Of a DNA stretch of 64,000 nucleotides, positions 3,641 through 52,816 are shown piece by piece. The notes under the pieces are model-generated. The model was given only the letters and a program-made list of their open reading frames with translations. It made no database searches and was not told the origin of the DNA. This stretch comes from a virus. The stretch lies in UHGV virus genome UHGV-0294963. One strand, written 5' to 3'. Numbering within the stretch: position 1 is the stretch's first letter; each line of letters begins with the position of its first letter. The translations under genes and the position numbers were made by a program.

Positions 3641-3685
3641 GTATAACATAATTATATACGATGTAAACCACAATAAACGAAGTTT
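3641..3685 (-). promoter_or_regulatory. Candidate promoter for the que operon (revcomp AACTTCGT, 19 nt, TATATAAT/TGTTATACA)
   Basis: Fits the recurrent AACTTCGT, N16-20, TGnTATAAT architecture found in at least 10 other intergenic regions. Sits in a 440-bp AT-rich gap upstream of the yhhQ-like gene. Confidence 0.45.
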
Positions 3686-3852
3686 ACGTTCTCTTAGCTG
3701 CTCCTGAACCGTCTTTACCTTTCTGGTCGTCTTCGATGAATTTCTTTATCAGCTTTGTTCTGAATAGCACCGGTTGGTCTTCTACATAGTCAGCTGTGTA
3801 TCCCTGACATCTTGCTAGAATACAACGTATCTCAGCATCAACCTGGTCATAC

Positions 3853-4653
3853 TTACTTCTTAGGAGCTGCCAATAGAGTTTTCCATTCTTTGAGGTCTTC
3901 TTCGGTCGGTCGAAAGTAGTAGTCGTTAACTGGTACGTATGCCCACGCACGACCTCCACATTTCGGACACTTGAACTCAACCCGCTTCTGAAGTCCGACA
4001 TTGAACTCTTCTTTGTAACGACGCTCGATGAGTTCTTCGTCGACCGCCATGAGGTTACCGAGCCACTCGCAAGCTTCTGATATATCAACAAAGTCAGTAT
4101 CAGAAACAGATGCAATAGCAGCGCCGAGTGCTCTGAATTCCTCGTCACCCTTATCAACCTTTGCTGTGTAGAACAGCATATCTTGACACCGATTAAGATG
4201 CATCTTAACCTCGGCATTACAGAACATAAACTCTTCCGGTTTAATCACGAATGCCTTCTTGAGCTCTTCACCTTTATCAGGACGCAGAACTCCGATTGTA
4301 GTGAGGTCAATCTGTCTAGGCTCGGTGTAGAACTTACCTTTAGAACCAGCTTCATTTATACAGTCGGTACATATCCAGTTCTGGGCTGTCCAAAAAGGTC
4401 CCCAGGTAAGAATACGCAGATGTCTCAACAGAAGGAAATAATCAGGCTCATATAATTTCCGCACATCAATCTTGGGCTCAATTACCTGAGGTAAAATGTG
4501 CTTAATCATAGCCTGATGTAGATTGTCAGAAGATAATCTGAGTTTCTCCATTCGACTGGTATAACCACTGACAGTGACTGTCTGCGGAATTCCCACATCA
4601 GAATAATCATATAAGAACTCATGGTCTTCATTCATTAGTGCCATTAAACTCAC
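3853..4653 (-). CDS. Hypothetical protein with C-terminal CPKCGG zinc-ribbon-like motif
   Basis: 266-codon ORF. SD GAAAGGTG before the ATG. First gene after a promoter-like site. No family I can recognise. Confidence 0.5.
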   Translation of the reverse strand: MSLMALMNEDHEFLYDYSDVGIPQTVTVSGYTSRMEKLRLSSDNLHQAMIKHILPQVIEPKIDVRKLYEPDYFLLLRHLRILTWGPFWTAQNWICTDCINEAGSKGKFYTEPRQIDLTTIGVLRPDKGEELKKAFVIKPEEFMFCNAEVKMHLNRCQDMLFYTAKVDKGDEEFRALGAAIASVSDTDFVDISEACEWLGNLMAVDEELIERRYKEEFNVGLQKRVEFKCPKCGGRAWAYVPVNDYYFRPTEEDLKEWKTLLAAPKK

Positions 4654-4712
4654 ACCTTTCTTTGATTTGGTAGAAAATGCGTGTGCAGTGGTAGTATCTT
4701 ACTTACATTCTA

Positions 4713-4745
4713 AGTATAACATAGTCAGCACACGCATTTCGAAGT
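4713..4745 (-). promoter_or_regulatory. Candidate promoter (revcomp AACTTCGA, 17 nt, TGTTATACT)
   Basis: Same motif architecture as the other intergenic promoters. Immediately upstream of the 3853..4653 gene. Confidence 0.4.
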
Positions 4746-4750
4746 TTCTC

Positions 4751-7700
4751 TTAATTCAGTGATTTATCAACCGAACCGTAAAGCTGTTCATAAGGAACCG
4801 TCTCAGACATAGAATTATTATCAAGTCTGATAATCTGTACAGGGGCTCTGAATCTCAGGTTTGAGAAGTTCTGTTTCTTGATGTCTACAGACGGATTCTT
4901 CATGTACAGGTTAAGATAAACCTTACCTGCCCTTGTCTTCGCTGATGAAGGATTTCCATTCCACTCCCAGTTCATATTGACAAGAAGATTTCCATTAGGA
5001 ACAAAATCAGAGTTATTATCATCCCAACCCTGATGTACACCAGCAGTACCGGAAATTTTCAAATTGAGGTTATCAGGTATACGAATAATCGTATTCTGGT
5101 TGATAGGACCTCGGGATTCCACTTCTGGTGCTGTCTCACCTTCGTTGACTGTTACCTCTTCTGCTTCTTGTTCAAGATTATACTCAAAGAACAATGGTGG
5201 GAAATTCACATAACCAAGGGACGACCACACTCTATCGATTCCTCCGTTATAATCTTCCCAACCTTGATACTTAACCCAAACATCAAGCATTGCAGAGCAT
5301 ACACCATTCTCACCCATAGTAATGCTAGAAAATCTACAGGACAAGCTGTTGCCTTTATCTTCATCATCACTATTGATTGCTTTGGTGAATATCTGAGGAA
5401 TCATCATCCAAGGTAAGTCAAGCTCGATTGTGTTACCGCCGCTTACAAAAGAGGAATACTTCCACTCACCGATATTAGTAAAAAAGGGCTTGTTCACCTG
5501 ACAGTGATTTACACCGAATAAGCAGGTTTCTGTAGACTTATGACCTGTAGGCGTATCTACCTGAAGATTATCCCCTTTAAGAGTTAGATAATCGATGTCT
5601 TCGAGGTGAAGCAATAAGCCGTCTGAACGAATACCATCCTCGATTACTGCAGAAAAGTCTAAAGTAACATCACCTCGAATATGAGCAAGGGTACCGGTAG
5701 AATCTAATGCAGCTCTCCATTCAGAAGCATTACCTGTCATCTGGAATGTAACTCCATTCGGATAATAGCAATATTGATATTGAGTCAAATCGACACCTGG
5801 AAGAATAGGAATAAGCGTATCTGGCATTTCCTTGAAACCACCATGCTTTATAAAACCAAGCAGAGTGTCTGTGATTCTTAGTCTTTGAGTATTCTGGTCA
5901 TTGATTACATCAGTCAACTCAGAACCAGTACCGACCTTAACCACGCCGTAGCAATTGGGAGTTGCAGGCACGGCGAAACCACGCTCAACAGCCTCAACCG
6001 CAAACAGAACTGATTGATACAACCCAGGTGAATTCTGGTCCTGCCGGAATGAGCGAGAGTCACCAGGGTCGAGTATCGTATAGGCATCAGCATCGATATA
6101 AGCGAATTTGATATTACCTTTGTGAGAGTCACCCCGGATATCTACGTCAGCTATCGCGCCACTTTCATAAGCTACGGTGCCAACCTGAATAGGATTAGAA
6201 TTTGGTGTTAGTCGAGTCCATAACTTACCTATCAAACCTAAACCGACGGTGTTGCGTTCAATACCTTCATCATAGATAGCAGTAGACACATTCCGTGGAA
6301 TATTGTTATACTTACAACTAATAGGATAACCGGACTCAGGAGTGATTAGCAAAGAACCAGGAATAATACTCTTACCGATGTAATGGGTAGTAGTGAATGC
6401 TCCATTATACGCAGCTTCATCCATCGAAATTGCATGAGCAAATCGCCACCAGCCATCTGCGCCAGCCGAACTCGCATAGCGGCAGACATAACGAGCAGAA
6501 ACATTCTGAGTAAATGAATCTAATGTACCAGTTACCGTACCGGTTACGGTAGCGTTAATCGTACCCTGAGCTGTACCATTTACTGAGCCTTCTACAGGAT
6601 ACTCCCGATTATTAACAGTGACGTTACCAGTCACCGAACCTGTAACATTAGCTTCTAGCTTAGATTGCTTTGCTGTACCAGTTACAGTGCCAGAAACAGT
6701 GCCATACTTGGTTACGATATTCTCAACGGTATTACCGTTAGCACGCTCAGTACCACCAGCTTCAGCAATATCATTGATTACCCAGAAGTAATCGCCTACC
6801 GCGACTGTCGGTGTGTGCGCCTCGAACCAATTTTTAGCATCGTCCAGTGTAAGGAAAGGACCGAACTGTCTTCCTCTAGCATGACCAGAACTCCTACGAT
6901 TTGCGTAATCAGAGAATACCAACTCTAGCATAGTCAACTGCTGAGTAGTCAAAATACCGTCTACTCCGTGTAGATTAGCAAGTACAGGGAAAGACACCTG
7001 GGAGTCATAAATCGGTTTCTTAATTGTGGGGTCGCTGGACGGTGAATTATAGGATGGACTCAAATCTGTAACACCTGCATTTAAGGACGCATACGGAAGA
7101 TACAGAGCTCGATGGTCTATTACATCTGCACCCGTCTTGCCAGGTACCTGAGCTTGATGCCAAGACATTCTAGCAAAAGCTGCTAGGGTTTTCGCATCAA
7201 TTCTACGCAGACAATTGAAATTATCTACAACCGGGTCGTCACCTGTATACGGAGCTTCATCAGAAACGATAATACCACGAGTAGGTTCATCCTGAGCATT
7301 ACCAGCTGTTTCTGCGTTAGTCGACATACTCCTAAGCAGCATGCCTAGGTTAGACTCGAAGGCAATCCACAACCACTTATCGATATCGATAAGATTAGTG
7401 ACCTCACCGTCAGAGCTACCTCCGGTTTCGCCGAACTTTATGCCGTAGATATGGTCATCATCAACCGCCGACAGTAAGTCCTTATAATTCTCAGCACCCT
7501 GAACGCCATCCAGAGGAATTATTCTGGTTTTATAAGGGTTCTCAGTCAACAGATAGTGTCCTTGAGAATCACAAGTGATAGTTCCTAGCAGCAGTTCATT
7601 GCCGTAAGGAAGTTCGTCGTTAATAACGATAGCAGCACCTTGATAAACACCATTAAGCGGCGGAATTAAACGCTCATCATGACGTGCAGCGCTAGGTGCG

Positions 7701-8284
7701 GTATATTGTACAGCTAACTTTATGAACTTGGTATAGCATGGATTCTCAGGATTCTGACCGGGATTGGTTGCTACATCTGCAATTTCAGGAACAGAAATTG
7801 CGTCTGCCTTATAAATCTTGGTTTCATCATGAGCATCTACATAATAGCCATATACCAGAGCTACACCGCTTGATATAGCAAGTCTACCGTCATCTTGAGC
7901 GATAGACAATTTATAATCATCTTCGTCACGACAACCAGTAGCATAAGCTGTGACATGCCAGTTAGCTTTATTATGCACAAGCGGATTCTTAAATGACCGT
8001 AAGCCAGGACCTTGCATTGAAGTAGCACCCGTGGTCTGGTCAGTTTCGACAGGAACGCCGAACGCATTGTTCACTGCTTCTGCCACTATATCAGCATAGC
8101 CAGACAAGTCTACTTCCCGTTTGAGCAGCGTGTTCAACGCTGCTCTCTGGTTAAATTCGGTGATAAGTTCACCACCATGCGTGTCTGTACTATACGGAGT
8201 TATATACGAGTTGGCAGAGGAATAGACAAGAAAACGATGGTCGTCAGCTTCCTGAAGGTCGTACAGTCTGTCATCTGTTGCCAT
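4751..8284 (-). CDS. Large virion-associated protein, putative tail fibre or baseplate (1177 aa)
   Basis: Long ORF with Thr/Gly/Val-rich repeats (GTVSGTVTGT...VTGSVTGNVTV). No enzymatic motifs. Assignment is by composition only. Confidence 0.35.
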   Translation of the reverse strand: MATDDRLYDLQEADDHRFLVYSSANSYITPYSTDTHGGELITEFNQRAALNTLLKREVDLSGYADIVAEAVNNAFGVPVETDQTTGATSMQGPGLRSFKNPLVHNKANWHVTAYATGCRDEDDYKLSIAQDDGRLAISSGVALVYGYYVDAHDETKIYKADAISVPEIADVATNPGQNPENPCYTKFIKLAVQYTAPSAARHDERLIPPLNGVYQGAAIVINDELPYGNELLLGTITCDSQGHYLLTENPYKTRIIPLDGVQGAENYKDLLSAVDDDHIYGIKFGETGGSSDGEVTNLIDIDKWLWIAFESNLGMLLRSMSTNAETAGNAQDEPTRGIIVSDEAPYTGDDPVVDNFNCLRRIDAKTLAAFARMSWHQAQVPGKTGADVIDHRALYLPYASLNAGVTDLSPSYNSPSSDPTIKKPIYDSQVSFPVLANLHGVDGILTTQQLTMLELVFSDYANRRSSGHARGRQFGPFLTLDDAKNWFEAHTPTVAVGDYFWVINDIAEAGGTERANGNTVENIVTKYGTVSGTVTGTAKQSKLEANVTGSVTGNVTVNNREYPVEGSVNGTAQGTINATVTGTVTGTLDSFTQNVSARYVCRYASSAGADGWWRFAHAISMDEAAYNGAFTTTHYIGKSIIPGSLLITPESGYPISCKYNNIPRNVSTAIYDEGIERNTVGLGLIGKLWTRLTPNSNPIQVGTVAYESGAIADVDIRGDSHKGNIKFAYIDADAYTILDPGDSRSFRQDQNSPGLYQSVLFAVEAVERGFAVPATPNCYGVVKVGTGSELTDVINDQNTQRLRITDTLLGFIKHGGFKEMPDTLIPILPGVDLTQYQYCYYPNGVTFQMTGNASEWRAALDSTGTLAHIRGDVTLDFSAVIEDGIRSDGLLLHLEDIDYLTLKGDNLQVDTPTGHKSTETCLFGVNHCQVNKPFFTNIGEWKYSSFVSGGNTIELDLPWMMIPQIFTKAINSDDEDKGNSLSCRFSSITMGENGVCSAMLDVWVKYQGWEDYNGGIDRVWSSLGYVNFPPLFFEYNLEQEAEEVTVNEGETAPEVESRGPINQNTIIRIPDNLNLKISGTAGVHQGWDDNNSDFVPNGNLLVNMNWEWNGNPSSAKTRAGKVYLNLYMKNPSVDIKKQNFSNLRFRAPVQIIRLDNNSMSETVPYEQLYGSVDKSLN

Positions 8285-8681: not shown

Positions 8682-9743
8682 TCACTGAAAATCTGTGATA
8701 GGTTTGAGCTCCTTATTGAACTCCTTGCTGAGATTGCGTGCGTCCTTGGACACTGCCAGCTTAGACTTTACCAAGATGCAGTCTGCGTCGTCGATTTCAT
8801 CGACAATCTGAATCTTGCCTGCGATGGCGAGCTCATCAACATCAGCTGCATCCACCTTCTTGATGTCCACATAGCACTTCAGAGGCTGCGTAACTGCCGC
8901 TTCCTCGTCTGTGTCATTGATGTCCTCAGTCTCAGCAGTTTCAGCTGCCGATGACTGCTCATCTGCAATCACATCGTCTGCTTCATTTACAATAGGCTGC
9001 TTCGTAGCTTCATCAGACTCACCAGCAACGGGCTGCTCGATTTTCTCCGTCTCAGGCTCAATCGGTGTATCCTGGTCCTCATCAAGCACAAGCTGGTCAC
9101 AGAAACTGCTGGTACACTTATAGAACATAGGAAGGTCAGGATAAATCTGAATACGCTTGAGCGGATTGTTACACTTAGGGCAGAACTGAGGAATCGGAGC
9201 AACAACAGGTGCTGTGTTCATCGGCTGAAGTTCACCATTCCAAACCTTTGCGGTACAGCCAGGCTGAAAGTAAGCAATCAACTTCATGTCAATTACTTCG
9301 AACTCGCCTTTATCTGTAGTGCAGACCAGAGTTAAAGTCTTATCTGGTGCCATCACATACTTTACTGAATTGATGTGTGCCAACTCAGGAACCTTGAACT
9401 CGTTTCCACTTGGAAGACTAATCCAATAAGCATCATACATCGAGTACTGATTCTTGAGGGTAATGAGCTGATTGCCCTGACCACTCTCGTTCTCAAAATA
9501 AGGAACTGTCTTGAAGCCGAGAGAGGTTAGGAGAGCGAGCTGCTCAGTCACGGTAAACTTTCTTGCAGAAGAATACAAGGAATATGCCAGGAAGTCATTC
9601 TTAGACACATATCCCGTAATCTCGAAAGGAAGACTATAATTCTTTATCTGATTCGGTGTGTGTTCAACTGGACTGCCAAGCAGAGCTCCTGTTTCATTGT
9701 AAGACACGGTCGCTTCAGGCAGATTAAGTTTAAGTCTAATCAT
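8682..9743 (-). CDS. Hypothetical protein with CPKC...KCTSSFC zinc ribbon and a roughly 90-aa highly acidic C-terminal tail
   Basis: Its start overlaps the sigma-factor stop by 8 nt, suggesting translational coupling. The tail is rich in D/E (DEDQDTPIEPETE...DEEAAV). Confidence 0.45.
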   Translation of the reverse strand: MIRLKLNLPEATVSYNETGALLGSPVEHTPNQIKNYSLPFEITGYVSKNDFLAYSLYSSARKFTVTEQLALLTSLGFKTVPYFENESGQGNQLITLKNQYSMYDAYWISLPSGNEFKVPELAHINSVKYVMAPDKTLTLVCTTDKGEFEVIDMKLIAYFQPGCTAKVWNGELQPMNTAPVVAPIPQFCPKCNNPLKRIQIYPDLPMFYKCTSSFCDQLVLDEDQDTPIEPETEKIEQPVAGESDEATKQPIVNEADDVIADEQSSAAETAETEDINDTDEEAAVTQPLKCYVDIKKVDAADVDELAIAGKIQIVDEIDDADCILVKSKLAVSKDARNLSKEFNKELKPITDFQ

Positions 9744-10347
9744 CTGATAACACTCCTTTACATTTTCTTAGGTACCATTGTACGCACGGCACCGATAATT
9801 TGGTTAAACCAGATTTATATAAATCAGTAACTTCTTTCGCCGGCATGTGAAGTTCCTTTGCGATTTCATTCACGCTCCATGGCGGTTCATCAGAAGTTCT
9901 GTTTATAACGTGAAGAACATTGATTTCTTTTGGAGTAAGGAGCTTCTCGACCACTTTCGAGATGTCCATCTGTTTCTGGTCGAATTCATATTTATCTTCT
10001 ATCTGTTCTTCCATTGGAATATCAGCGTCCTCGCATTCAAATTCCGAGAACGTCATTTCAGGATTTACCAGCTTATTCATCTGGTTCCTTATATAAGGAA
10101 AAGCATATGTGCTCAAGACTGTATATGTATCAGCGTCGAATCTGTCTATAGCTATCATCAATCCCATAACTCCAGCAGATACGAGCTCTTCGCTGTCGCT
10201 CTCACTCGGAAAGCGACTTGCGAAGTACATCTGATAGCATCTATGCACGAGACCCATATTGTTCAAAACCAACTTGTTTCTTACCTCAGGGTCTCTGGTT
10301 CTAGCATATTCCTTGAGCAATTCCTGATTTTGCTGTCCCCTGCTCAT
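9736..10347 (-). CDS. Phage-encoded RNA polymerase sigma factor (sigma-70 family, SigF/SigG-like)
   Basis: Region 2: LVLNNMGLVHRCYQMY and GVMGLMIAIDRFD with F.TYA..YIRN. Region 4 HTH: LTPKEINVL...WSVNEIAKELHMPAKEVTDLYKSGLTKL. Confidence 0.75.
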   Translation of the reverse strand: MSRGQQNQELLKEYARTRDPEVRNKLVLNNMGLVHRCYQMYFASRFPSESDSEELVSAGVMGLMIAIDRFDADTYTVLSTYAFPYIRNQMNKLVNPEMTFSEFECEDADIPMEEQIEDKYEFDQKQMDISKVVEKLLTPKEINVLHVINRTSDEPPWSVNEIAKELHMPAKEVTDLYKSGLTKLSVPCVQWYLRKCKGVLSDD

Positions 10348-10389
10348 ATAACCCTCCTCAGTCTTTCAATACTATAATATTGATGTGCG

Positions 10390-11922
10390 TCATGATTTAT
10401 CAACCCAGCCTCCGTTAGAGCGCTCCTTCGGTGGCATTTCATCCCAGGTATGCGATGAAGCCTTGTACTTCCTGACATTCAGCTTTTTAACCCAGATTCC
10501 GTTCTCTCTAACCCAGATGGTAGCAGACTTCTTCCAGACAGCGTAATACTTATTCTGATTATCATCAGAATTAACTTTACACGCTCTGAGGTCTAAGCAG
10601 GTACAATCTTGACCTGCTTCTAATATATGATATTGTCTGTCTTTCCGCCAGCCGTAGAACACCAGAGGGTCAGCTGACTCAGCCAGAACAGTACGAATGT
10701 TGTCCATAACATCTCTATAGACATTTATGCCCGCGACGTGCATATACTCATGTTCATCATAACAAGGTATTCCAAGTCGTATTCTATTTTCTGGATACTC
10801 GTAGTGTGGTGGCGGGTCTGCAAGTAGAGGCCCTTCATGATCACCTACAGAACTACCGGCAGAAGCCACACCATGACCTAGAAGCTCATCATCCTGTGCA
10901 GTGAGATTTTGATAGAAATATATATTAGGAATTGCCCATTGCGCATAGAAATTCCTATTAGCATTTATTGTCTGCTCCTGCTCTTGCTGTGGTGTATAAG
11001 GAGTTCCTCCTCTACTTCCTGACCAACCTATGAATTGTGGTGTTTCGGTTACGCCATCGCCACTGGCGTTAATCCAGGTTGGATTTGTGTGGGGCTTCGC
11101 GTTAGCGAGAGTAGTACCTATATTTACCTGACCGCTCTGGATTATTCGATTGTCGTCTGATTTCTGATTACGATAAAAGGTAGCAGTTACCGTACTCTGT
11201 CTCCATTGGGCAGTATAGGTTAAATCTTGCTGAACATTCTTCCAATTCTCATCGTTAGGTGACCACCCATCAAAATCAAAACCAGATTTCGTTACAGGAC
11301 CGGGCGGGTCAACTCTACCACCTTGAACAACAGTTTTAGAATAATCAGAAGTCGAACCTGCATAAGAACCACCATTCAGTTTATAGGTTACCGTATAACT
11401 CGGAAGCACCGTAACCGTATCATAGCTAGATATCTGAATACAATTCTCACCAGGACCTGAAGTAAACCAGGCTTGGAAATGCACATAGTAAGTACTGTTA
11501 GGAGCAAGTGGTACAATATCATCGAAAACGAATTTATACGCAGGACCTGGGCGTGGTTCCCAATAAGACTCTCCCGGTCTGGAATCATAATGAAAAACCA
11601 GATTCGGGTCTTTCACAATCCAAGAAGTACCATAATAGGTTCTGCCACCTGCGGATATCGACACCTGCATCGTGCAGTTATTACCACCTGCTATGTGGTC
11701 AGAACCACCATCAGAAGGAAAGGACTGACCTTCAGAATCTGCTATCTGGAACGTGAACGTAAATCCGCCAAGGTATGCAGTAGTATTACCTGTGTTCTCA
11801 ACCTTGATAACAAAATCATCAATGCTGTCATTGTTCCAGTACGGGTTTTCGAAAAACCATGAGCCGTCTGCGGGGGTAAAGTCACCATTCGTCATGGAAC
11901 CTTTTGTCAATACAATAGCCAT
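10390..11922 (-). CDS. Protein with Listeria-Bacteroides (Flg_new) repeats; putative virion or adhesion protein
   Basis: Repeat pattern FDFDGWSP...TYTAQW and FIGWSG...NFYAQW. Confidence 0.4.
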   Translation of the reverse strand: MAIVLTKGSMTNGDFTPADGSWFFENPYWNNDSIDDFVIKVENTGNTTAYLGGFTFTFQIADSEGQSFPSDGGSDHIAGGNNCTMQVSISAGGRTYYGTSWIVKDPNLVFHYDSRPGESYWEPRPGPAYKFVFDDIVPLAPNSTYYVHFQAWFTSGPGENCIQISSYDTVTVLPSYTVTYKLNGGSYAGSTSDYSKTVVQGGRVDPPGPVTKSGFDFDGWSPNDENWKNVQQDLTYTAQWRQSTVTATFYRNQKSDDNRIIQSGQVNIGTTLANAKPHTNPTWINASGDGVTETPQFIGWSGSRGGTPYTPQQEQEQTINANRNFYAQWAIPNIYFYQNLTAQDDELLGHGVASAGSSVGDHEGPLLADPPPHYEYPENRIRLGIPCYDEHEYMHVAGINVYRDVMDNIRTVLAESADPLVFYGWRKDRQYHILEAGQDCTCLDLRACKVNSDDNQNKYYAVWKKSATIWVRENGIWVKKLNVRKYKASSHTWDEMPPKERSNGGWVDKS

Positions 11923-15724: not shown

Positions 15725-15767
15725 ATTATACAAGAAAACACCGAGGGCTTTCGAAGTTAAAGAACAC
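15725..15767 (-). promoter_or_regulatory. Candidate promoter (revcomp AACTTCGA, 20 nt, TATAAT)
   Basis: Recurrent architecture upstream of the 14818..15702 gene. Confidence 0.4.
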
Positions 15768-15774: not shown

Positions 15775-15839
15775 TGCTTAACTGCTACCAGGTTTCACAA
15801 ACAAATACACAAAGTAAACCACTGCATTTAAGCAAAACC
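15775..15839 (-). terminator. Degenerate copy of the conserved inverted-repeat element (CTGCTTAA....CTGCATTTAAGCAAAACC) after a gene stop
   Basis: The right arm is identical to the arms at 33165, 52792 and 59756. Position is after the stop of the 15839..16396 gene and before the next promoter. Confidence 0.35.
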
Positions 15840-20806: not shown

Positions 20807-20939
20807 CCCTTATGTATAACCTTTATTTTGCTTACGTTGTGCTGTGGTTTTGCGTGTGGAACCATATTATAGCACATACAGTTATTAAACACACAACCAC
20901 GTAGCAAAACCACGCACAAGTGGTGACAATAAATGTCAC

Positions 20940-20979
20940 ATTATAATTATATAATAACCGACTAACGATACACGAAGTT
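20940..20979 (-). promoter_or_regulatory. Candidate promoter (revcomp AACTTCGTG, 18 nt, TATATAAT)
   Basis: Recurrent architecture in the 170-bp gap upstream of the 20375..20806 gene. Confidence 0.45.
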
Positions 20980-24800: not shown

Positions 24801-24830
24801 TATTATACAACATTTAGCAACACATTACCG
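24801..24830 (-). promoter_or_regulatory. Weak candidate promoter (revcomp ACTTCGG, 19 nt, TGTATAAT)
   Basis: A variant of the recurrent motif upstream of the clamp-loader gene. Confidence 0.3.
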
Positions 24831-24910
24831 AAGTAACGTAAATGCTTAAATACACTGATTTCATATAACCATTTGTACTGCGCAGCAAGCAGCAATTAAG
24901 CAACACCGGA

Positions 24911-27506: not shown

Positions 27507-27539
27507 ATTATAACACACATCTTCGTGTAAAACGAAGTT
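27507..27539 (-). promoter_or_regulatory. Candidate promoter for the SSB gene (revcomp AACTTCGT, 16 nt, TGTTATAAT), with a small CTTCGTG/ACGAAG hairpin
   Basis: Recurrent motif. The downstream leader is CA-rich (CCAAACACCAAACACCAAG). Confidence 0.45.
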
Positions 27540-30207: not shown

Positions 30208-30240
30208 AGTATAACACACGACATCAAGGTACACGAAGTT
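30208..30240 (-). promoter_or_regulatory. Candidate promoter (revcomp AACTTCGTG, 16 nt, TGTTATACT) driving the dpdA operon
   Basis: Recurrent architecture. A CACGTGCTAACGACACG motif related to the conserved 20-bp core lies at 30171-30190. Confidence 0.45.
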
Positions 30241-30820
30241 ATTTACACATTCTACCTTGCACACCTACATAATTATATATTACATTGTATCATAATTATA
30301 ACACACATCCTATTTTACCATCGAAGTTAAAACCAATTAACCAAGGCTGCGGTGACTATACTATATAATATAACAACAACCGTTTTCTTCCTCTAGATTT
30401 GATTATTGCTTTAATGACCTAAAGTGCCACCAAATAGCAAAATATCAAGGCGCTTCGCGCCTAGCTTTAAAGATTCTATTTTCAGTTTTTAATTTTCGGT
30501 TGTATCTACTTCTTTTGACTTAAATTTCTTATTTGTCTTAATTGCTGTCTTTGAATTTTGTTTGGTTTTGGTTTGTCTGCGGTTTTGTCGCAGTCAAGGT
30601 TGCGTGCTGAAAGCAGAAACCTTTGTAGCGATGAGTATGGTTTACCAGGCTGTAAGCGGTGTGCAATCCGACTTGTCGGTGTGATATATTAGATGGAGCG
30701 GTGCGAACATATAATATATTGTGAGGTATGTGAAATACATAGAATTAAAAATAGTAAACAAATCGATTAAAGAAAAAGTGTTGATACTGTAAAGATTAAA
30801 CAAATTTTAACGAAAATATA

Positions 30821-30854
30821 AATATTCGACGTTTTGTTGCTTGTATGTTATAAT
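30821..30854 (+). promoter_or_regulatory. Candidate promoter (variant TATTCGAC, then TGTTATAAT) for the SNF2 helicase gene
   Basis: Extended -10 TGTTATAAT 47 nt before the ATG. The upstream element is a weaker match to AACTTCGT. Confidence 0.35.
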
Positions 30855-33117: not shown

Positions 33118-33176
33118 GCTTAAATGCAGTGATTTACACTATATAAATGGTGTTGCGTAGTTGCTGCATTTAAGCA
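33118..33176 (+). terminator. Conserved inverted-repeat element (TGCTTAAATGCA, 35 nt, TGCATTTAAGCA)
   Basis: 12-bp arms identical to the elements at 52743 and 59704. Sits between a gene stop and the next gene start. Confidence 0.5.
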
Positions 33177-33556: not shown

Positions 33557-33590
33557 AACTTCGAAATACAATTAGAAATTGTGTTATAAT
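33557..33590 (+). promoter_or_regulatory. Candidate promoter (AACTTCGA, 20 nt, TGTTATAAT)
   Basis: Recurrent architecture upstream of the flap nuclease gene. Confidence 0.45.
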
Positions 33591-34548: not shown

Positions 34549-35070
34549 ATGTCGCCTATCGAGTATCAAGCAGCAAAAGTTCTAGGCGTAATCCATGCCA
34601 AACCTCATGATTATCAGGATGCTTTAGAGCTACCTAGGAACAAAGCTGCTCGGTATGGTGACCTGATGTCTTATGTTGGTATGTATGTTCAAGGTATATT
34701 GCTCATAAATGATTCCTTCGACCACATCACATCAGAGACGATGCCTGCTTATGAATCATGCTGCAATATAATACGAAAGCAGGATTTAGCATACGCAAGA
34801 CCAATCCCTCAGCAAGTCAGAATCAAATTCCAATTATACCTGCGTGCAAATCTTCCTGTAGAATGGCTTTCGAGTTTTCTACGAGAATACAGATTACATC
34901 TTTTCGGTAATGTAATGTGGGTAGACCAGAAGAAGCGAGAATACGTTACTGACTTTAACGATAAAAGGTTTTTGCATAAGGTTAAAGGTATCTGGGCTTT
35001 AGATTATGCACCACTTACCGATTACAGTCGTTACGAAGAAATAAAGAATATTTTAGACAACACCGCATAA
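34549..35070 (+). CDS. Hypothetical protein (173 aa)
   Basis: ORF with SD AAGGGGGTAAG. Confidence 0.4.
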   Translation: MSPIEYQAAKVLGVIHAKPHDYQDALELPRNKAARYGDLMSYVGMYVQGILLINDSFDHITSETMPAYESCCNIIRKQDLAYARPIPQQVRIKFQLYLRANLPVEWLSSFLREYRLHLFGNVMWVDQKKREYVTDFNDKRFLHKVKGIWALDYAPLTDYSRYEEIKNILDNTA

Positions 35071-35100
35071 GTTCGTTATAAACTCATGTGGTGTTATATA
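35069..35100 (+). promoter_or_regulatory. Candidate promoter (AAGTTCGT, 18 nt, TGTTATATAAT)
   Basis: Recurrent architecture upstream of the first GT-like paralog. Confidence 0.4.
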
Positions 35101-35141
35101 ATATAATAGTAAATAAAACACCGTTATCAAGGAGGATTGTT

Positions 35142-36047: not shown

Positions 36048-36056
36048 GGTGAGTCT

Positions 36057-37368: not shown

Positions 37369-37374
37369 TACAAT

Positions 37375-39316: not shown

Positions 39317-39319
39317 GAT

Positions 39320-41257: not shown

Positions 41258-41259
41258 TT

Positions 41260-42483: not shown

Positions 42484-42489
42484 TAGTAG

Positions 42490-43758: not shown

Positions 43759-43760
43759 AA

Positions 43761-46139: not shown

Positions 46140-46142
46140 TCA

Positions 46143-46970
46143 ATGATTTTTAGTGCAGATTGGTATTCTACGGACGCTACGACAGGTTGGAAACTGGACG
46201 GAGCTGAAATTATATTAGATGAAGCTCTACTGAACAAAATTAGGGAGTTTAAGGAGAACACTGGTGTTTATCTAACATTACACTCGCCTATGTCAGTTGC
46301 TATCGGAAGTAAGAAGCCTGGTGTACGCTTTATGAGTACCGAGATTATATGCAATCATCTTTCATTGCTGAAGCAGATACAGCCAGGTGTAACTAATCGA
46401 ATTGTCGTTCACGCTGCTAACTTCTCAGAACGAACTCCAGAAGAAGTTTATGAGGTACAGCGTAAGACGCTCTGGTCACTCTGGTACAAGATGCGAGATA
46501 AAGGCTTGCTTGATAGCTGTTTAATCTGCATCGAGAACCTAGGTAAGATAAGTCAGGTAGGTGACGTTGCAGACATCATCAAGCTCTGCAATTTGACAGA
46601 TAATTTCATACCTTGCCTCGACTTCGGTCATCTGCATGGAAGAACACTTGGTAAGTTCCTGAACTGTAAAGAAGAATTTGAACAGGTATTTAACCAGCTA
46701 TATGCTGGATTACCCTCATGGAAGGTTAACTGTATGCACATTCATTTTTCTAAGCTAGAGTATACAGATAAAGGTGAGAAGAAGCACGTTCCGTTTTCGG
46801 TTCATAGCGCTAGACCTAAGCCCGCAACCTTCTTGCGTGCATTACCTGATAGACAAGATTTTAATCCGGTGATTGTCTGCGAGTCACCGAACTCTTATGT
46901 AGACGGTCGACGTCTTCAAAGAAATTATTATGCAAGGCGTAGAGCGCTAGAAGACGAAATACGCCTATAA
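46143..46970 (+). CDS. Endonuclease IV / UvdE-like TIM-barrel (xylose-isomerase-fold) DNA repair endonuclease
   Basis: LHSPMSVAIGS (resembles HAPYLINLAS). LICIENLGK (resembles IENTAGQG). LDFGHLHG metal-binding His cluster. Confidence 0.4.
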   Translation: MIFSADWYSTDATTGWKLDGAEIILDEALLNKIREFKENTGVYLTLHSPMSVAIGSKKPGVRFMSTEIICNHLSLLKQIQPGVTNRIVVHAANFSERTPEEVYEVQRKTLWSLWYKMRDKGLLDSCLICIENLGKISQVGDVADIIKLCNLTDNFIPCLDFGHLHGRTLGKFLNCKEEFEQVFNQLYAGLPSWKVNCMHIHFSKLEYTDKGEKKHVPFSVHSARPKPATFLRALPDRQDFNPVIVCESPNSYVDGRRLQRNYYARRRALEDEIRL

Positions 46971-46984: not shown

Positions 46985-47018
46985 AACTTCGTTTCTGTAC
47001 CTGTACTATGTTATAATA
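46985..47018 (+). promoter_or_regulatory. Candidate promoter (AACTTCGT, 20 nt, TGTTATAAT) embedded in the CTGTACCT...AGGTACAG inverted repeat
   Basis: Recurrent architecture upstream of 47084. Confidence 0.45.
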
Positions 47019-48070: not shown

Positions 48071-48110
48071 GATTTACTACCGTGTGATATGCGTTAGCGT
48101 GCTACATGGT
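48071..48110 (+). repeat. Conserved roughly 40-bp element copy 1 (GATTTACTACCGTGTGATATGCGTTAGCGTGCTACATGGT)
   Basis: About 36/40 identical to 56857-56896. The core is shared with the inverted copy at 3531-3552. Confidence 0.55.
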
Positions 48111-48140
48111 TTATAACTTCGTGTGCGTGAACGAAATATG
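48108..48140 (+). promoter_or_regulatory. Candidate promoter (AACTTCGT, 19 nt, TGTTATAAT)
   Basis: Recurrent architecture, immediately 3' of the conserved 40-bp element. Confidence 0.45.
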
Positions 48141-48233
48141 TTATAATGTGTATACAATAAATCATTGTGTGTACTCTGGTTGTATTGATTGCAGATAGTG
48201 ACGACGTGATGAGAAAGTGAGGTGATACTGAGC

Positions 48234-48560
48234 ATGAAGATAGGCTACATTAATCGATATGACTTGAAACTGAATCCGCATCTGACAGAGCGTTTCAGGT
48301 TTATTGAAGCCAGTGCGACAAGGACTATAAACAGCCAGGGTGATAAGGTACGCTCAAAGATATTGCTTGCTCCCGTTGATTACGAAGAAGTTGCGAGCAC
48401 TGCTAATATAATGAAGGAGAATCCGCAGTTGATTTTAGTTTGTGAGCCTTTTATTCTAGACGACGAGTTGCGTGAGAAGTGCAGGAAGTGGGTAGAATGG
48501 GCGAATAAAGCAGACCCGTCAGAGTATGACCCATTCATAGATGCAGAACAGGAGAGTTGA
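48234..48560 (+). CDS. Hypothetical protein (about 108 aa)
   Basis: ATG after SD GTGAGGTGA. The ORF track gives an earlier GTG at 48222. Confidence 0.35.
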   Translation: MKIGYINRYDLKLNPHLTERFRFIEASATRTINSQGDKVRSKILLAPVDYEEVASTANIMKENPQLILVCEPFILDDELREKCRKWVEWANKADPSEYDPFIDAEQES

Positions 48561-48723
48561 TTATGCTAAGAATTAAGTTCAGGTATAAAGACTGTTATAC
48601 CAAAGGGGAGACGTGGTCTGAGCAAGAATGTGTCATGAGTAGCGTTCATGAGTGCATAAAGTTCTATGGTTTAGACCAGCCTGATGTTGAGTATCAGATT
48701 GTTAGTGTAGAGGAGGTAGCGTA
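48553..48723 (+). CDS. Small hypothetical protein (56 aa; MLRIKFRYKDCYTKGETW...)
   Basis: SD AGGAGAG 6 nt before the ATG. Overlaps the previous stop. Not in the supplied ORF track because it is under 60 aa. Confidence 0.3.
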
Positions 48724-48945
48724 GTGGGAAGAATGACGTCGGAAGCTATGAATGAGAAGTTTTATAACAATTATCGTGCTAGGTATGAAGATGACGAGTA
48801 TGAATACCATGCAGTTTCGGTTAGACAGGCTTGGTATCTTGCTTTCCAGCACTTCGGTGATGAATGTCTTGACTACCTGGCAGAAATAGACCAGGATGGT
48901 GATGAGGTTGCTATACTCTTAGACAAGGAGGAGGAAATATATTGA
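48724..48945 (+). CDS. Small acidic hypothetical protein (73 aa, GTG start)
   Basis: SD GAGGAGG 8 nt before the GTG. Confidence 0.3.
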   Translation: MGRMTSEAMNEKFYNNYRARYEDDEYEYHAVSVRQAWYLAFQHFGDECLDYLAEIDQDGDEVAILLDKEEEIY

Positions 48946-50030
48946 AAGTTATTCACCTGGCTGACCTTCATATAGGTAAGCCATTTCACAAGAAAAGTCT
49001 GCTATTCGACCAGACCTATATGCTGAAAAATGTCCTGGATTTGATGGAATCTCAGAAAGCACATCTGGTTATTGCAGGCGATGTGTTCGATTCTGCAAAT
49101 CCATCAATCGACGCTCAGGAAGTGTTCGTATCCTTTATCAAGGAGGTCGTGAAACTCTGTGATGCGTATAATCTGACTACGATTATTATCGTTGGTAATC
49201 ACGATTCTAATAGACGTCTTGCTTTGTGGGAAGACTTTGTCGGTACTCGAGTTCATATCGTGAACGATACTGTTGAAATACTAATCGAGGGTATTCCGTT
49301 CTATGCAGTTTCTTTTGTAAAACCCACAATCGCACAGACGAAATTCAATCGCCCATTTGAGTCCTATAATGAGGCTTTTGAAGCATATCTGCCTGAAACA
49401 AATCGTGAGAATACAATTCTCATTGCGCATCAGACATTCGAAGGTTGCACTACCGGTTCGTCTGAAGCGATGTCGTTCTTTGATGATGCAGTTAGCAAGA
49501 GAATCGTTCAGGAATTCCCATTGGTAATGGCAGGTCACATTCATAAGAAGCAGAAGATAGGAAATATTTTCTATCCTGGTAGTCTTATGCCTTATGCTTT
49601 CGGTGATGAGTATGCAGGCGGTATTACAGTATGGGACATTAGTACAGGTACGGACGGTAAGCTCACAGCCGGTTCTTCTGTCTATCCTGTACATCTATAT
49701 CGTGAATTCCAGATTGTAAGAGGAGACCTTAAGCATTGTCTAGGTATCGCAGATACAGGAGCCTATATCAAGGTTGAGCTTGTCGATGAGAATGTACCAC
49801 TCGATGTGGCTTTACCTCAACTTCAGAATCATTTCAAGAATATGGTAACGGCTGTTTCTAAGATAACGGACGATTGGGAAGCCGACTTGAATAAACCAAT
49901 GGTTCAATTCGATTCAATAGAATCCGCTCTGGATAGCTTCTGTAATCAGATTGAAGTTCCAGTCCTGGAGTCTGAACAATTACGATTAGTGCAGGAGGTA
50001 GTTCATGAGATTACTGAAACTTCAAATTAA
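48942..50030 (+). CDS. sbcD: SbcD/Mre11-like nuclease (TTG start)
   Basis: Calcineurin-like phosphoesterase motifs IHLADLHIG, AGDVFD, GNHD, GHIH. SD AAGGAGGAGG. Confidence 0.85.
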   Translation: MKVIHLADLHIGKPFHKKSLLFDQTYMLKNVLDLMESQKAHLVIAGDVFDSANPSIDAQEVFVSFIKEVVKLCDAYNLTTIIIVGNHDSNRRLALWEDFVGTRVHIVNDTVEILIEGIPFYAVSFVKPTIAQTKFNRPFESYNEAFEAYLPETNRENTILIAHQTFEGCTTGSSEAMSFFDDAVSKRIVQEFPLVMAGHIHKKQKIGNIFYPGSLMPYAFGDEYAGGITVWDISTGTDGKLTAGSSVYPVHLYREFQIVRGDLKHCLGIADTGAYIKVELVDENVPLDVALPQLQNHFKNMVTAVSKITDDWEADLNKPMVQFDSIESALDSFCNQIEVPVLESEQLRLVQEVVHEITETSN

Positions 50031-52728
50031 GAACTTTATCAGTATCAAGCAAGCGTCTATCGACTTTGAGGAGCTGAATGACGGAGTATTTCTTATCTCA
50101 GGACCTACAGGTTCTGGTAAGTCATCGATGCTTGATGCAATCCACTGGGTACTGTTCGGCAAGACGCTGTCTTCCAACCGCGCAACGGTTACTAAAGAAA
50201 TCCGCAGTACATACGCACCAGCAAATGAGGATACCGTGGTTACTCTTACCTTCAATCAGGACAAGATTGATTATAAGGTAGTTCGCACACTCAAGAAAGA
50301 CGGCGGTACCGCTGTTCAGCTGTTCGCTCCTGGTATCATTTATGATAAGGTAAAGGAAGCGAATGAGCATCTGGAGAAGATTATCGGACTTACGGTTAAG
50401 CAGTTCGACCAGATGGTTATGCTAGAACAAGGTAACTTTTCTAAATTTCTACTTGCAGACTCTCGTACTCGTGCTGAGATTCTACGTGATATTTTTGATA
50501 CTCAACTATTCAAGGACATTGAATTAAGATTCAAAGATAGATGTGCTGATTTGAAGCAGACTATTCTTAATTCTACAGAGCTCGAGCAAAGTCTACTTCA
50601 AGGCGAGATGCTTGAAACTGTTCAGAGTCAGATTATGCTTACAGCTGAAACAATTCAAGAAGAGCAGGCTCGTCTTGATGAGCTGAAAGCAAGTCACAAA
50701 GCAGCCGAGGATATGCTACCAGACATGGTAGCATACGACCAGCAGTATGCTGTATATGCAAAAGCACAGAAGGAACTCGAACAGCTTGCAGCTCTCAAGT
50801 CAGAGGTTGAGGAGCTCTATAAAAAGCGAGACGTATATATGGCGTATGTCTCTGTTCTTGATTGGTATGCGTCTTACCATAAGACCAGGCAGGAGTATGA
50901 CAAGTGCGTAACTGATGAGGCTGATTATCAGAAGAGAATCGCCTCAGTGGTTGTCGATGAAGAACTTTCCGGTAAGGTTTCTGCATTACAAGCACGCCAA
51001 TCAGAACTGACAGCACAACTCGATGCGTTCGCTCAACTCGCTCGTCAGAAGGAGCAGCTTGATAGTTATTATCAGGAGATAGCTGGACTTGCTGATGAAA
51101 AGACCCACCTTGAAACCTGTCTGACCGCTGTTCAAGAAACCAAGGATAATCTTAAGATTAGGCTTGATACTCGACGTGACTTCGACCAGAAAAAGGCTGA
51201 GGTGATTGAGCGAGATAAAGCGAGAGCTCGTATGCAGCAAGACATTGAAGCTTTAGAAACGTTTATAGACAGTAATAAAGCAGTCTACTCAAAGCTACTA
51301 GCACGCAAACTTCTTGATATGAGTGAACCAGGTATTTGTCCCATCTGTGGTACTGTGTACACGGATGAGCACGTGTCGGTAGAAACCTCCGGTAGTAGCA
51401 TTGATTCTAAACAACGTGAATTGGAGACCAAGAAGAACCAGCTAGAAGGTCTCAGAGTTCAACTCGATAGTTTACCAGTGCTTCCGGAACCAGAGTGTAC
51501 TGAGGTAGCACCTTACAACGACCTTCTTACGCAGTGGAATACAACCGCAGCGAAATACAACGAAACACAATCTAAACTCTATGAGGTCGATAAGAAATTG
51601 GCAACATTAACCGGTGCCTCTGAAGCAGCTAAACGGGAGATTGCTAATATCGAATTGAAGGTAGCCAATCTAGTGGAAGTAGAACTTCAGCAAGAGCTTG
51701 ACCAGGTTAATGCTGAGTACAGCGAGCTCTGGGCTAAGGTTGATGATAACGAGATGGCTAAAAGAAGTCGCAACCTACTTGAAGGTTACCTCAGAAGTGT
51801 TCAAGATAAGATGAACACTCTTAAAGCTGAACTCGAGCGTCTGATGGCACTTCCTGAAGCTAAATCTGATGATGACGCAGAACTAAAAGCCGCTTTATCT
51901 TATGCAGACCGGGTAGACGATTATCGAGTTCATATCAATGATTATCTTTACAAAATTCAGCAATATGAAATGCTCAGAGATAATCTGCTATCTGTAGATG
52001 AACCTGTCAATCCACATCCTGGACATACTGCTGCGAGCGTCAGACAGCTAATCACAGATACAAATATCGGTATTGAAGAATCTGTCAGACGAATTGCAGA
52101 AGCACAGAATTCACTTGATGCCCGTAAAGAGTTGGTTAAGCGAGTATCTGATATCAGAGCTGAACGAGATAAAAATACCAAGGCTTATGACCAGCATATG
52201 TACCTTTATAACCTGTTATCTGGCAAGAACAGTTCTAAGATTTCATTCGAGACTTTTGTTCTGCACAGACAGCTTGAATGGATTCTGCAATCGAGTAATC
52301 AATATCTGCATACACTGTCGGCTGGTCAGTTCGAGCTTCAAGTTAAGTGGGAGTCATTGTCAGGTCGTACTCAAGGTGGTTTGGAAATTATGATTACAGA
52401 CCATTTCACAGGTAGCACTCGTCCCGCTCAGACATACTCAGGTGGTGAGCTATTTATGCTCAGCCTTAGTCTTAGCCTGGGATTGATGACTGCGATTGAC
52501 TCACTGTTCACTACAAGAGACTTGAACTTGCTGTTCGTAGATGAAGGATTCGGCACTCTTGATAGTGATTGCCTCAGTCGTACTCTTATGACACTTCGTG
52601 ACTTAAGAAATATCAAGAGTGTGGGAATAATATCACACGTTCAGGACCTCATCGACACGATACCGCAAGGATTCATAGTCGAGAAGACCGCAGCTGGTTC
52701 GAAGATAAAATTGTTCAAGAATATCTAG
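50005..52728 (+). CDS. sbcC: SbcC/Rad50-like SMC ATPase
   Basis: Walker A ISGPTGSGKSSMLDAI. Long coiled coil with central CPICG zinc hook. Signature and D-loop LFVDEGFGTLD. Confidence 0.85.
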   Translation: MRLLKLQIKNFISIKQASIDFEELNDGVFLISGPTGSGKSSMLDAIHWVLFGKTLSSNRATVTKEIRSTYAPANEDTVVTLTFNQDKIDYKVVRTLKKDGGTAVQLFAPGIIYDKVKEANEHLEKIIGLTVKQFDQMVMLEQGNFSKFLLADSRTRAEILRDIFDTQLFKDIELRFKDRCADLKQTILNSTELEQSLLQGEMLETVQSQIMLTAETIQEEQARLDELKASHKAAEDMLPDMVAYDQQYAVYAKAQKELEQLAALKSEVEELYKKRDVYMAYVSVLDWYASYHKTRQEYDKCVTDEADYQKRIASVVVDEELSGKVSALQARQSELTAQLDAFAQLARQKEQLDSYYQEIAGLADEKTHLETCLTAVQETKDNLKIRLDTRRDFDQKKAEVIERDKARARMQQDIEALETFIDSNKAVYSKLLARKLLDMSEPGICPICGTVYTDEHVSVETSGSSIDSKQRELETKKNQLEGLRVQLDSLPVLPEPECTEVAPYNDLLTQWNTTAAKYNETQSKLYEVDKKLATLTGASEAAKREIANIELKVANLVEVELQQELDQVNAEYSELWAKVDDNEMAKRSRNLLEGYLRSVQDKMNTLKAELERLMALPEAKSDDDAELKAALSYADRVDDYRVHINDYLYKIQQYEMLRDNLLSVDEPVNPHPGHTAASVRQLITDTNIGIEESVRRIAEAQNSLDARKELVKRVSDIRAERDKNTKAYDQHMYLYNLLSGKNSSKISFETFVLHRQLEWILQSSNQYLHTLSAGQFELQVKWESLSGRTQGGLEIMITDHFTGSTRPAQTYSGGELFMLSLSLSLGLMTAIDSLFTTRDLNLLFVDEGFGTLDSDCLSRTLMTLRDLRNIKSVGIISHVQDLIDTIPQGFIVEKTAAGSKIKLFKNI

Positions 52729-52742
52729 AAGAATAGCTGATA

Positions 52743-52803
52743 CTGCTTAAATGCACGGGACTGCTTGTAAAGTTATACACGCAACTTCGTAGCATTTAAG
52801 CAG
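52743..52803 (+). terminator. Conserved inverted-repeat element (CTGCTTAAATGCA, 36 nt, GCATTTAAGCAG)
   Basis: Identical 12-bp arms. Sits between the sbcC stop and the polA promoter. The -35-like AACTTCGT lies inside the loop. Confidence 0.5.
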
Positions 52804-52816
52804 TATCGTGTATAAT
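52783..52816 (+). promoter_or_regulatory. Candidate promoter (AACTTCGT, 20 nt, TGTATAAT) for the DNA polymerase gene
   Basis: Recurrent architecture 31 nt upstream of the polA ATG. Confidence 0.45.

Follow-up and report, generated by a model that had tools for sequence, protein, structure and literature searches.

The middle promoters of bacteriophage T4 join a near-perfect host-type -10 element, often with TGn, to a phage-specific asymmetric box that replaces the -35 element (PMC2988021). AsiA remodels sigma region 4 and MotA reads the substitute box (PMC2988021, PMC6755090), whose sequence is (a/t)(a/t)(a/t)TGCTTtA and which is centred at -30, 12 +/- 1 bp from the -10 (PMC2988021). In Firmicutes, the primary sigma recognizes promoters with the "-16 region" extended -10, TRTGnTATAAT (PMC5036317, PMC12641261), and transcription is expected to start at a pyrimidine-purine step 7 nt after the -10 (PMC12641261). 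Here we describe a putative promoter family that combines features of both designs, found in a 64,000-nt stretch of the virus genome UHGV-0294963 (the window), which corresponds to the reverse strand of positions 37474-101473 in the 150,573-bp human-gut metagenome scaffold ERZ28657755 scaffold_36. Its hallmark is an asymmetric AACTTCG box at a rigid distance from a host-type -10 element.

An earlier note on this sequence had proposed a recurrent two-part intergenic motif, and motif counts bear it out. The composite AACTTCG-N14-24-TATAAT occurs nine times in the window, as compared with 0.04 expected copies (0 of 100 shuffles), and its exact form, AACTTCG-N20/21-TATAAT, is likewise present in nine copies. 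Taken separately, the elements are less enriched, with 12 matches to AACTTCGW (4.5 expected) and 12 to TGNTATAAT (3.6 expected). Allowing up to one mismatch per element, we recovered 13 sites, plus a degenerate one. All 13 lie in intergenic DNA, which makes up only 5.7% of the window, all 13 are oriented towards the downstream gene, as had been claimed, and they occupy 12 of the 17 gaps of at least 60 nt. The box is far from equally common in coding DNA: 11 of the 12 exact AACTTCGW copies serve as promoter copies, and the sole intragenic one is at 17320(-). Canonical promoters, conversely, are not in excess in the window (48 found by scanning, 48.3 expected).

The distance between the elements is indeed fixed, although not at the 16 to 20 nt given previously: the G of the box is separated from TATAAT by 20 or 21 nt, that is, by 16-17 nt from TGT. 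The hexamer is TATAAT in 11 of the 13 sites and TATACT in the other two. TGnTATAAT, formerly attributed to at least 12 intergenic regions, is present in approximately half of them, whereas the remainder have TG directly adjacent to the hexamer or no TG at all. At 12 of 13 sites the putative start position carries a T followed by a purine. The earlier note had overlooked three features: the promoter at 30295, the conservation at T-17/R-16 and that of the start region. These comparisons support the motif as a genuine promoter family, correctly oriented and with a conserved element replacing TTGACA.

A pattern scan revealed that the box motif is recurrent in a set of 78-167-kb IMG/VR contigs. Eleven related contigs, whose proteins show 45-98% amino-acid identity to those of the window, contain about 260 copies, with a maximum of 34 copies in the 78 kb of a single genome. 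The consensus of some 230 unique sites from these contigs comprises AACTTCGT at -39..-32, an unconserved spacer, T-R-T-G-T-TATAAT and the start region ATAGaT(-1)A(+1)CAATAAA, with frequencies of 0.85 for T-17 and for R-16, more than 0.9 for TG and 0.90 for both T-1 and A+1. In this set, TATAAT was fixed by the search and part of the sites were retrieved by a pattern containing AACTTCG and TGTTATAAT, which inflates the frequencies at those positions and partly biases -15..-13 but leaves -17/-16 unbiased; evidence free of this bias is provided by the window, by loci retrieved through their proteins and by box-free scans. Anchoring the search on TATAAT-N5-TACAAT alone confirmed the coupling, with an exact AACTTCG at 20/21 nt in 83 of 104 sites. 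Among sites with a strong start region, the box was found in 153 of 161 and near-variants in the remainder. Where the search pattern did not fix the box, TTCG was almost invariant and the three bases before it varied (TAC, ATC, AAA, AAG and others).

Orthologous promoters in diverged relatives retain the box, the -10 and the start region, but their spacers differ, indicating selection on the promoter elements themselves. Such conservation might alternatively reflect the copying of whole cassettes, by PeSL-like recombination or gene conversion, with no selection on each element. The copies do form dense arrays between variable small open reading frames (ORFs), about 13% of the sites overlap an upstream hairpin (a stem of at least 6 bp around the box) as compared with 4% of permuted controls, and PeSL elements offer a precedent (PMC4122927). 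However, unconserved spacers between a near-invariant box, -10 and start region largely refute this explanation, which we find hardly credible. The proportion of about 13% also led us to discard the idea that the box is in general the loop of a terminator hairpin. Likewise, we rejected the downstream TACAAT (-1..+5) as the true -10, because TRTG correctly precedes TATAAT and T-1/A+1 falls 7 nt after it, because sub-class B sites (see below) do not have TACAAT, and because TTGACA is placed 17 bp from TATAAT in unrelated elements.

We then separated the contribution of the core from that of the box by scanning metagenomes for the -10 and start region only (TGTTATAAT-N-TAGRTACARTAAA), with about 0.5 chance matches expected. 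This box-free scan yielded 166 unique sites, of which 112 had TTCG at 20/21 nt. About 45 others, on unrelated gut contigs, had TTGACA or TTGACT at 16-18 nt, mostly 17; these contigs range in GC from 0.28 to 0.56, and the sites precede many different genes and usually have A/T-rich upstream DNA. Many unrelated gut contigs among metagenome loci L143-L262 (e.g. L150, L156, L184 and L220) have near-identical promoters, in the order of an A/T-rich segment, TTGACA, N17 with TRTG, TATAAT, nTAGATACAGTAAA, GGAAAGGAG and ATG, which looks like an optimal core promoter plus leader common to gut Firmicutes elements. The -17..+8 core is thus a generic host primary-sigma module and is not phage-specific; since TTGACA promoters elsewhere in the gut share it, only the box is particular to the phage. 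Within 651 kb of family DNA, 261-267 of the 920 TATAAT hexamers are accompanied by the box, whereas a perfect TTGACA at 16-18 nt accompanies just one, and TTGACA with up to one mismatch 20, where about 13 are expected by chance. TTGACA is therefore essentially never used in the phage family, and the box appears to substitute for the -35 element.

Scanning 596 Gb of bacterial genomes for the composite motif produced only two chance matches, which rules out that it is a host promoter type or a prophage element and supports a box promoter family specific to one phage lineage. We found no description of an AACTTCG box promoter in the collections and literature searched; the papers retrieved for AACTTCG concerned loxP only. 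With its flanks (A.AACTTCGTAtt) the box does resemble the 13-bp loxP arm ATAACTTCGTATA, but we attribute this to chance as there is no inverted partner spaced at 8 bp.

These results bear on whether region 4 of the host primary sigma could read the box directly, as an offset and degenerate -35 (TTCGta with an 18-19-bp spacer), with no phage factor involved. The host-type core, the invariance of the box among phages with diverged proteins, and the location of the phage sigma genes and the earliest-looking genes behind box promoters would all suit this explanation, and T4-type early promoters and PeSLs with lineage-specific -35 elements (TTTACW, TTGYVH) are still read by sigma70 (PMC4122927). 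Yet the rest of the promoter is consensus-optimal, and elsewhere in the gut this core is accompanied by TTGACA at 17 bp; TTGACA should then be favoured, but is absent in the family. Furthermore, the invariant CG of TTCG mismatches the known -35 preferences of primary sigmas, and the composite is missing from bacterial genomes apart from the two chance matches. We consider direct reading by the host sigma possible but unlikely.

The copies are not evenly distributed and fall into two sub-classes. In sub-class A, the spacing is 20, TGn is present, the start region is conserved and TRTGnTATAAT is matched exactly; in sub-class B, the spacing is 21, TG is adjacent or absent and the start region is weak. 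Sub-class A dominates in arrays such as a 56-kb stretch of one relative, where about 86 small ORFs are preceded by 35 copies that share a single strand. The genes in this stretch include Tad2-like and Tad8 Thoeris inhibitors, Lar, NADAR, a MazF-like nuclease, a dUTPase and a second phage sigma factor, giving it the look of an early, host-takeover region. The window, with its replication and DNA-modification genes, has one copy per 4-5 kb, each heading an operon, and its sub-class B sites (Table 1) and their orthologues precede replication, DNA-modification and sigma operons. Of the six relatives whose structural modules were compared, four carry a single copy at the module head, approximately 10 kb upstream of the capsid gene, and none has a credible box promoter within the roughly 20 kb inside the module. 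Box promoters precede not only the anti-defence arrays of the early region but also replication genes and the genes for both sigmas, and they are found at the head of the structural operon. Sub-class B is defined mainly from six window sites and their orthologues. Having neither TG nor a -35, such promoters would be expected to show little activity with host polymerase alone, and the box is likely to be functionally required at them.

Table 1. Predicted box promoters and other features; positions refer to the window unless a contig (L followed by a number) is indicated.
Feature	Position	Strand	Details
Box promoter	3651..3684	-	Sub-class B; AACTTCGT, 21 nt, TATAAT, no TGn
Box promoter	4713..4746	-	AACTTCGA, 21 nt, TGT-TATACT; 266-aa gene, 4653 to 3853
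Box promoter	15725..15758	-	Sub-class B; AACTTCGA, 21 nt, TTG-TATAAT; operon 15702 to 4751, including sigma gene
Box promoter	20946..20979	-	Sub-class B; Dda helicase, DnaB and primase operon (20806 to 15839)
Box promoter	24802..24835	-	Sub-class B; TACTTCGG variant, perfect TATAAT; clamp-loader operon (24770 to 20978)
Box promoter	27507..27539	-	Sub-class A; AACTTCGT, 20 nt, TGTGT-TATAAT, ...ATACAAT; SSB, sliding clamp, resolvase
Box promoter	30208..30240	-	AACTTCGT, 20 nt, TGTGT-TATACT; 536-aa gene and DpdA-like transglycosylase (30174 to 27557)
Tandem second box promoter	30295..30328	-	Sub-class A; 87 nt upstream of the 30208 promoter
Degenerate box promoter	30822..30854	+	ATATTCG, 20 nt, TGT-TATAAT; SNF2 helicase gene at 30901
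Box promoter	33557..33590	+	Sub-class A; exonuclease gene at 33629
Box promoter	35069..35102	+	Sub-class B; AAGTTCGT variant; operon ~35139 to 46970
Box promoter	46985..47017	+	Sub-class A; DUF932 gene at 47084
Box promoter	48115..48147	+	Sub-class A; small genes and SbcD/SbcC (48222-52728)
Box promoter	52783..52816	+	Sub-class B; DNA polymerase A gene at 52847
Phage sigma factor, 203 aa	9736..10347	-	Regions 2 and 4; region 2 SigF/WhiG/SigK-like
Sigma-1	L020 2156-2749		Early array
Early-array loci of relatives	L020; L023 7896-8879; L079, L087 and others		Second sigma factor, MazF/PemK-like protein, anti-defence genes (Tad2-like, Tad8, Lar, NADAR)
7-deazaguanine gene set	42-3410, 27557-28570; L112 10710-12394
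TGCTTAAATGC/GCATTTAAGCA repeat	15775-15834, 24843-24902, 33117-33176, 52744-52802, 59705-59766

As in T4, a near-perfect host-type -10 accompanies a phage-specific asymmetric box in place of the -35, and the promoters stand ahead of replication and nucleotide-metabolism genes in a phage with probably modified DNA and T4-like head, portal and neck genes. However, the box differs from that of MotA both in sequence and in position, AACTTCGT lying at -39..-32 and its G being 20-21 bp away from the -10. Early-array promoters use this box too, whereas a -35 is retained in T4 early promoters; a scan of 126 proteins revealed no homologue of MotA or AsiA; and the host appears to be of the Firmicutes type. 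From their sequence, the box promoters would work like T4 middle promoters but are not members of that class. With T4-type early promoters and PeSLs they share a highly conserved promoter that recurs in a single orientation among variable small ORFs and whose conservation extends past the hexamers (PMC4122927, PMC2988021), the fusion of some copies to an upstream stem-loop and the existence of lineage-specific -35 variants (PMC4122927). PeSLs, though, keep a recognizable -35 at N17, whereas TTGACA-like hexamers are absent here and the stem-loop accompanies a minority of the copies. Sub-class A is also like the extended -10 promoters of Firmicutes in having TRTGnTATAAT and a putative Y-1R+1 start 7 nt downstream (PMC5036317, PMC12641261); ordinary promoters of that kind, in contrast, have a TTGACA-like -35 or nothing conserved upstream, and sub-class B has no TGn.

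Two further comparisons concern other phages. In Thermus phage P23-45, the middle and late promoters have an extended -10 and no -35, and phage proteins block -35 recognition; our family shares this avoidance of the -35 and might likewise allow host -35-dependent transcription to be turned off, although we know of no conserved substitute box in that phage. The middle and late promoters of SPO1 form a phage sigma-specific set. Another such set appears in HSE3 (Bacillus phage vB_BceM-HSE3, L141 1-33000), a cultured distant relative with several sigma genes, where (T)AGGCTCT-N16-(A/G)CGTTTATA-N3-GTGTAA precedes at least 15 small genes, a motif of which we know no description. These sets resemble ours in placing two-part promoters before nearly every small gene and in the presence of phage-encoded sigmas, but their -10 differs from the host consensus, whereas here the core is host-type and several gene classes are served.

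The earlier note had offered three possible readers of the box: the phage sigma factor encoded at 9736..10347, a modified host sigma or an activator. We favour the last two options. In our working model, to which we give slightly less than an even chance, the reader is a phage early adaptor acting with the host sigma, and box promoters are the standard vegetative promoters of the phage family, serving most of its early and replication genes. Polymerase with the host primary sigma would bind the Firmicutes-type extended -10 (T-17 R-16 T G n TATAAT) and start transcription at T(-1)/A(+1), seven bases past the -10, with the asymmetric 7-8-bp box (core TTCG) taking the place of the absent -35 hexamer. 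Sub-class A, in the small early and anti-defence arrays, would fire on unmodified host polymerase at the onset of infection, because both sigma genes and the earliest-looking genes are behind box promoters and host polymerase must start the programme there; sub-class B would depend on the reader. The contention that all these promoters require a specific -35 recognition is too strong, as a complete extended -10 ought in principle to work without it. The reader would be a phage early protein, different from the 203-aa sigma, that works with the host sigma and bypasses its region 4 in a manner similar to sigma appropriation, which would also permit the shut-off of host -35-dependent promoters. 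That a consensus-optimal promoter avoids TTGACA suggests that -35 recognition is unavailable or undesirable during infection, and we favour an adaptor because this avoidance resembles T4, with AsiA remodelling region 4 and MotA reading a substitute box.

Several observations weigh against an adaptor of phage origin. Pfam and NCBIfam scans of 30 window, 86 early-array and 10 conserved family proteins detected the two sigmas and an HU-like protein but neither MotA, AsiA nor any further DNA-binding family, although distant analogues would escape such scans. The box is invariant while phage proteins diverge to 41-60% identity, so that a host-encoded reader fits as well as or better than a phage protein. 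Taken as a hexamer 18-19 bp from TATAAT, TTCGta keeps the two most important T's of TTGACA, so that region 4 of the host sigma might read it weakly and directly. Lastly, the sub-class B counts obtained with relaxed criteria in relatives include an estimated 19 or so chance matches. A more far-reaching version of the adaptor model is a Gram-positive sigma appropriation, in which -35 reading by region 4 is disabled or bypassed, host TTGACA promoters are shut off and the holoenzyme is re-targeted by an AACTTCG-reading adaptor to more than 50 phage promoters, the box having possibly been chosen since 7-deazaguanine DNA cannot present a normal TTGACA major groove; we regard this version as rather unlikely.

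The family encodes two sigma factors that could be thought of as readers. The second, sigma-1 (198 aa), is present in the early arrays of six family contigs with 41-80% identity; it was located in relatives by local tblastn, as an IMG/VR peptide-pattern search returned only its own contig. Its gene adjoins one for a MazF/PemK-like protein and is directly behind a sub-class A-like box promoter. The protein has regions 2 and 4, a primary-sigma-like IRIPRxxWE stretch, which we take to lie where sigma70 contacts the TG of the extended -10, and TYAVPC in region 2.3, and is a candidate reader of the box. In a sigma cascade, sigma-1, probably encoded outside the window, would replace the host sigma and read both the box and TATAAT, with sub-class A serving both holoenzymes and sub-class B sigma-1 only. 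SPO1 gp28 is a precedent, as is HSE3 with its several sigma genes and its own promoter (AGGCTCT-N16-CGTTTATA), and the domain composition and the promoter of sigma-1 agree with this scheme. Nevertheless, TYAVPC is without the residues used by primary sigmas on TATAAT, the region 4.2 helix varies (SQAQVSR, SQPQIAR, SQAMACR, SQSSVSK) among relatives with identical boxes, and the -10 and start are exactly a host-type core, unlike HSE3 or SPO1 middle promoters. We judge this cascade distinctly improbable.

The 203-aa sigma encoded in the window is a still poorer fit. It is a genuine sigma, having both region 2 and region 4; seven relatives, all with the motif, conserve it at 86-92%; and AAC-containing -35 elements are typical of small sigmas, all of which would be compatible with its reading the box and the -10. 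Its region 2.3, though, is STYAFPYIRNQ, SigF/WhiG-like, with TYAFPYIRN where primary sigmas have TYATWWIRQ; primary sigmas use the WW/Q/T residues of this region on TATAAT, and the 203-aa protein is without them. A box promoter also heads the operon of this sigma, both in the window and in two of the three relatives that were mapped, the third having only a weak site directly upstream of the gene. Moreover, boxes are abundant in early anti-defence arrays but absent inside the late structural module, where a late sigma would act and which has other conserved upstream elements. One of these, an invariant TATATAAT with neither TG nor box, precedes the gene that follows the portal (L114 5788-5874 and its orthologues, L126-L135), with a hairpin (ATAGAC..GTCTAT) after it in the 5' untranslated region. 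This element recalls the T4 late promoters (TATAAATA) and is a candidate for recognition by the 203-aa sigma. This protein fits a late sigma better than a reader of box promoters, a role that we consider exceedingly improbable for it, contrary to what had been suggested.

Finally, since extended -10 promoters need no -35, the extended -10 alone could drive transcription and the box could be an operator for a phage or host repressor that shuts off early transcription. At the SSB promoter, the box is within an inverted repeat, AACTTCG-N7-CGAAGTT, that is kept in four relatives and may be an autoregulatory operator or a sign that the reader of the box can dimerise, and an HU/TF1-like gene is present. 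However, the box is a lone asymmetric 7-8-mer with one orientation and a rigid distance of 20-21 bp, an arrangement that typifies readers bound to polymerase and not dimeric repressors, and a complementarity scan of 4950 position pairs found no fixed-register dyad in the promoter (maximum z of 4.2). In addition, sub-class B sites, which have no extended -10, would be nearly inactive unless the box acts positively. An operator is, in our opinion, a very unlikely role for the box.

Individual promoters are retained to different extents. The promoter at 4713 is kept in three relatives (L119, L120 and L125) and that at 15725 has orthologues in L119 and L125; the TACTTCGG variant of the box at 24802 also occurs at the orthologous site in three relatives; and at 33557 the box, -10 and start region are retained in seven relatives with a diverged spacer. 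A weak box site at 59692(-) was dropped, as the box is not conserved there in relatives. The leader that follows the 20946 promoter also contains, 72 nt further downstream, a perfect TGTGCTATAAT extended -10 with no box (20866-20874(-)), which may be a second, box-independent promoter. Besides tandem box promoters on one strand and the degenerate promoter on the opposite strand, the 726-nt divergent intergenic region at 30175-30900, between the two gene blocks, has a GC hairpin (30448-30462) and an A-rich tract, and it could accommodate the replication origin or small RNAs.

Other conserved elements occur near or beyond the box promoters. Inverted pairs of TGCTTAAATGC...GCATTTAAGCA, about 49 nt apart, constitute a second intergenic repeat (18 matches as compared with 1.5 expected). 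Three of its five copies (Table 1) fold into hairpins of about 75 nt (z of -6 to -7), with a compensatory change in one relative, and the copies are just upstream of, or overlap, box promoters; the one at 52783 is embedded in the 3' arm of such a 75-nt hairpin. The repeat is possibly a processing or termination element. A different element, ...GATTTAC..CCGTGTG.TATGC.TTAGCGTGCTAC..., occupies three intergenic regions, at 3534-3545(-), 48094-48105(+) and 56880-56891(+), and a related block, TCTTGATTTnACGGTGTATTATA...TAGCACGCTA (L114, about 4060-4090), strongly conserved in all relatives, follows the terminator between the terminase and portal genes; these elements could be a late promoter or some other regulatory site. 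Inside the late module, a gene for an HU/IHF-like DNA-binding protein (59779-60054(-)), for which SPO1 TF1 provides the comparison, is preceded by a long conserved hairpin, GATGTGCGTCTGTA...TACAGACGCACATC (60055-60145). Scans for structured RNA with Rfam, at gathering thresholds, and for tRNA found none in the window.

Genes in the window encode primase, DnaB, Dda, clamp loader, clamp, SSB, SNF2 helicase, SbcCD and PolA. The 7-deazaguanine gene set comprises a Vut_1/YhhQ-type transporter, a QueA-like protein (PF02547), QueF, QueC, QueD, QueE, FolE and a DpdA-like transglycosylase, from which the phage DNA is probably modified with 7-deazaguanine; the QueA-like protein is unusual for a phage. 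The promoter at 3651 is followed by a 240-nt leader (3411-3650) with a tandem ..AACAGTGAGTA..CCCC.. repeat and then by the queuosine-type operon for Vut_1, QueA-like, QueF and QueC (3410 to 42). A preQ1 riboswitch was suspected before this operon, but Rfam detected none in the 3380-3700 leader. Past window position 64000, the flank contains terminase, T4-type portal, gp23-type capsid and gp13-type neck genes, and the window genes at 56897-63729(-) are the continuation of this late structural module. The nearest cultured capsids, from large myoviruses of Bacillus, Listeria and Streptococcus, show about 29% identity, and strong GGAGG ribosome-binding sites in the window fit a Firmicutes-type host. 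Megablast of 48 kb gave no match to cultured phages, and BLAST of the 54-nt consensus against them gave A/T-rich chance matches only, so that the motif is present in no described relative. In one relative (L032), the terminase large-subunit gene matches in two pieces (7246-7890 and 9237-10529), about 1.3 kb apart, which suggests an intron, intein or homing-endonuclease insertion.

In its plainest form, our analysis describes a host-optimal core promoter that systematically avoids the canonical -35, a testable statement on how these phages take over transcription. The design of the box suggests, without proving it, a phage trick that redirects host RNA polymerase. The demonstration of a sigma-redirecting factor in Gram-positive bacteria, or of a link with 7-deazaguanine DNA, would add to its interest. 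If a phage factor does read the box on the host sigma, the cleanly defined target, with about 260 natural sites aligned, would be useful for finding that factor, would help to predict early and middle genes (anti-defence genes among them) from metagenomic phage genomes and would supply an orthogonal promoter part. Such a factor would represent a new sigma-redirecting system in the abundant, uncultured large phages of gut Firmicutes.

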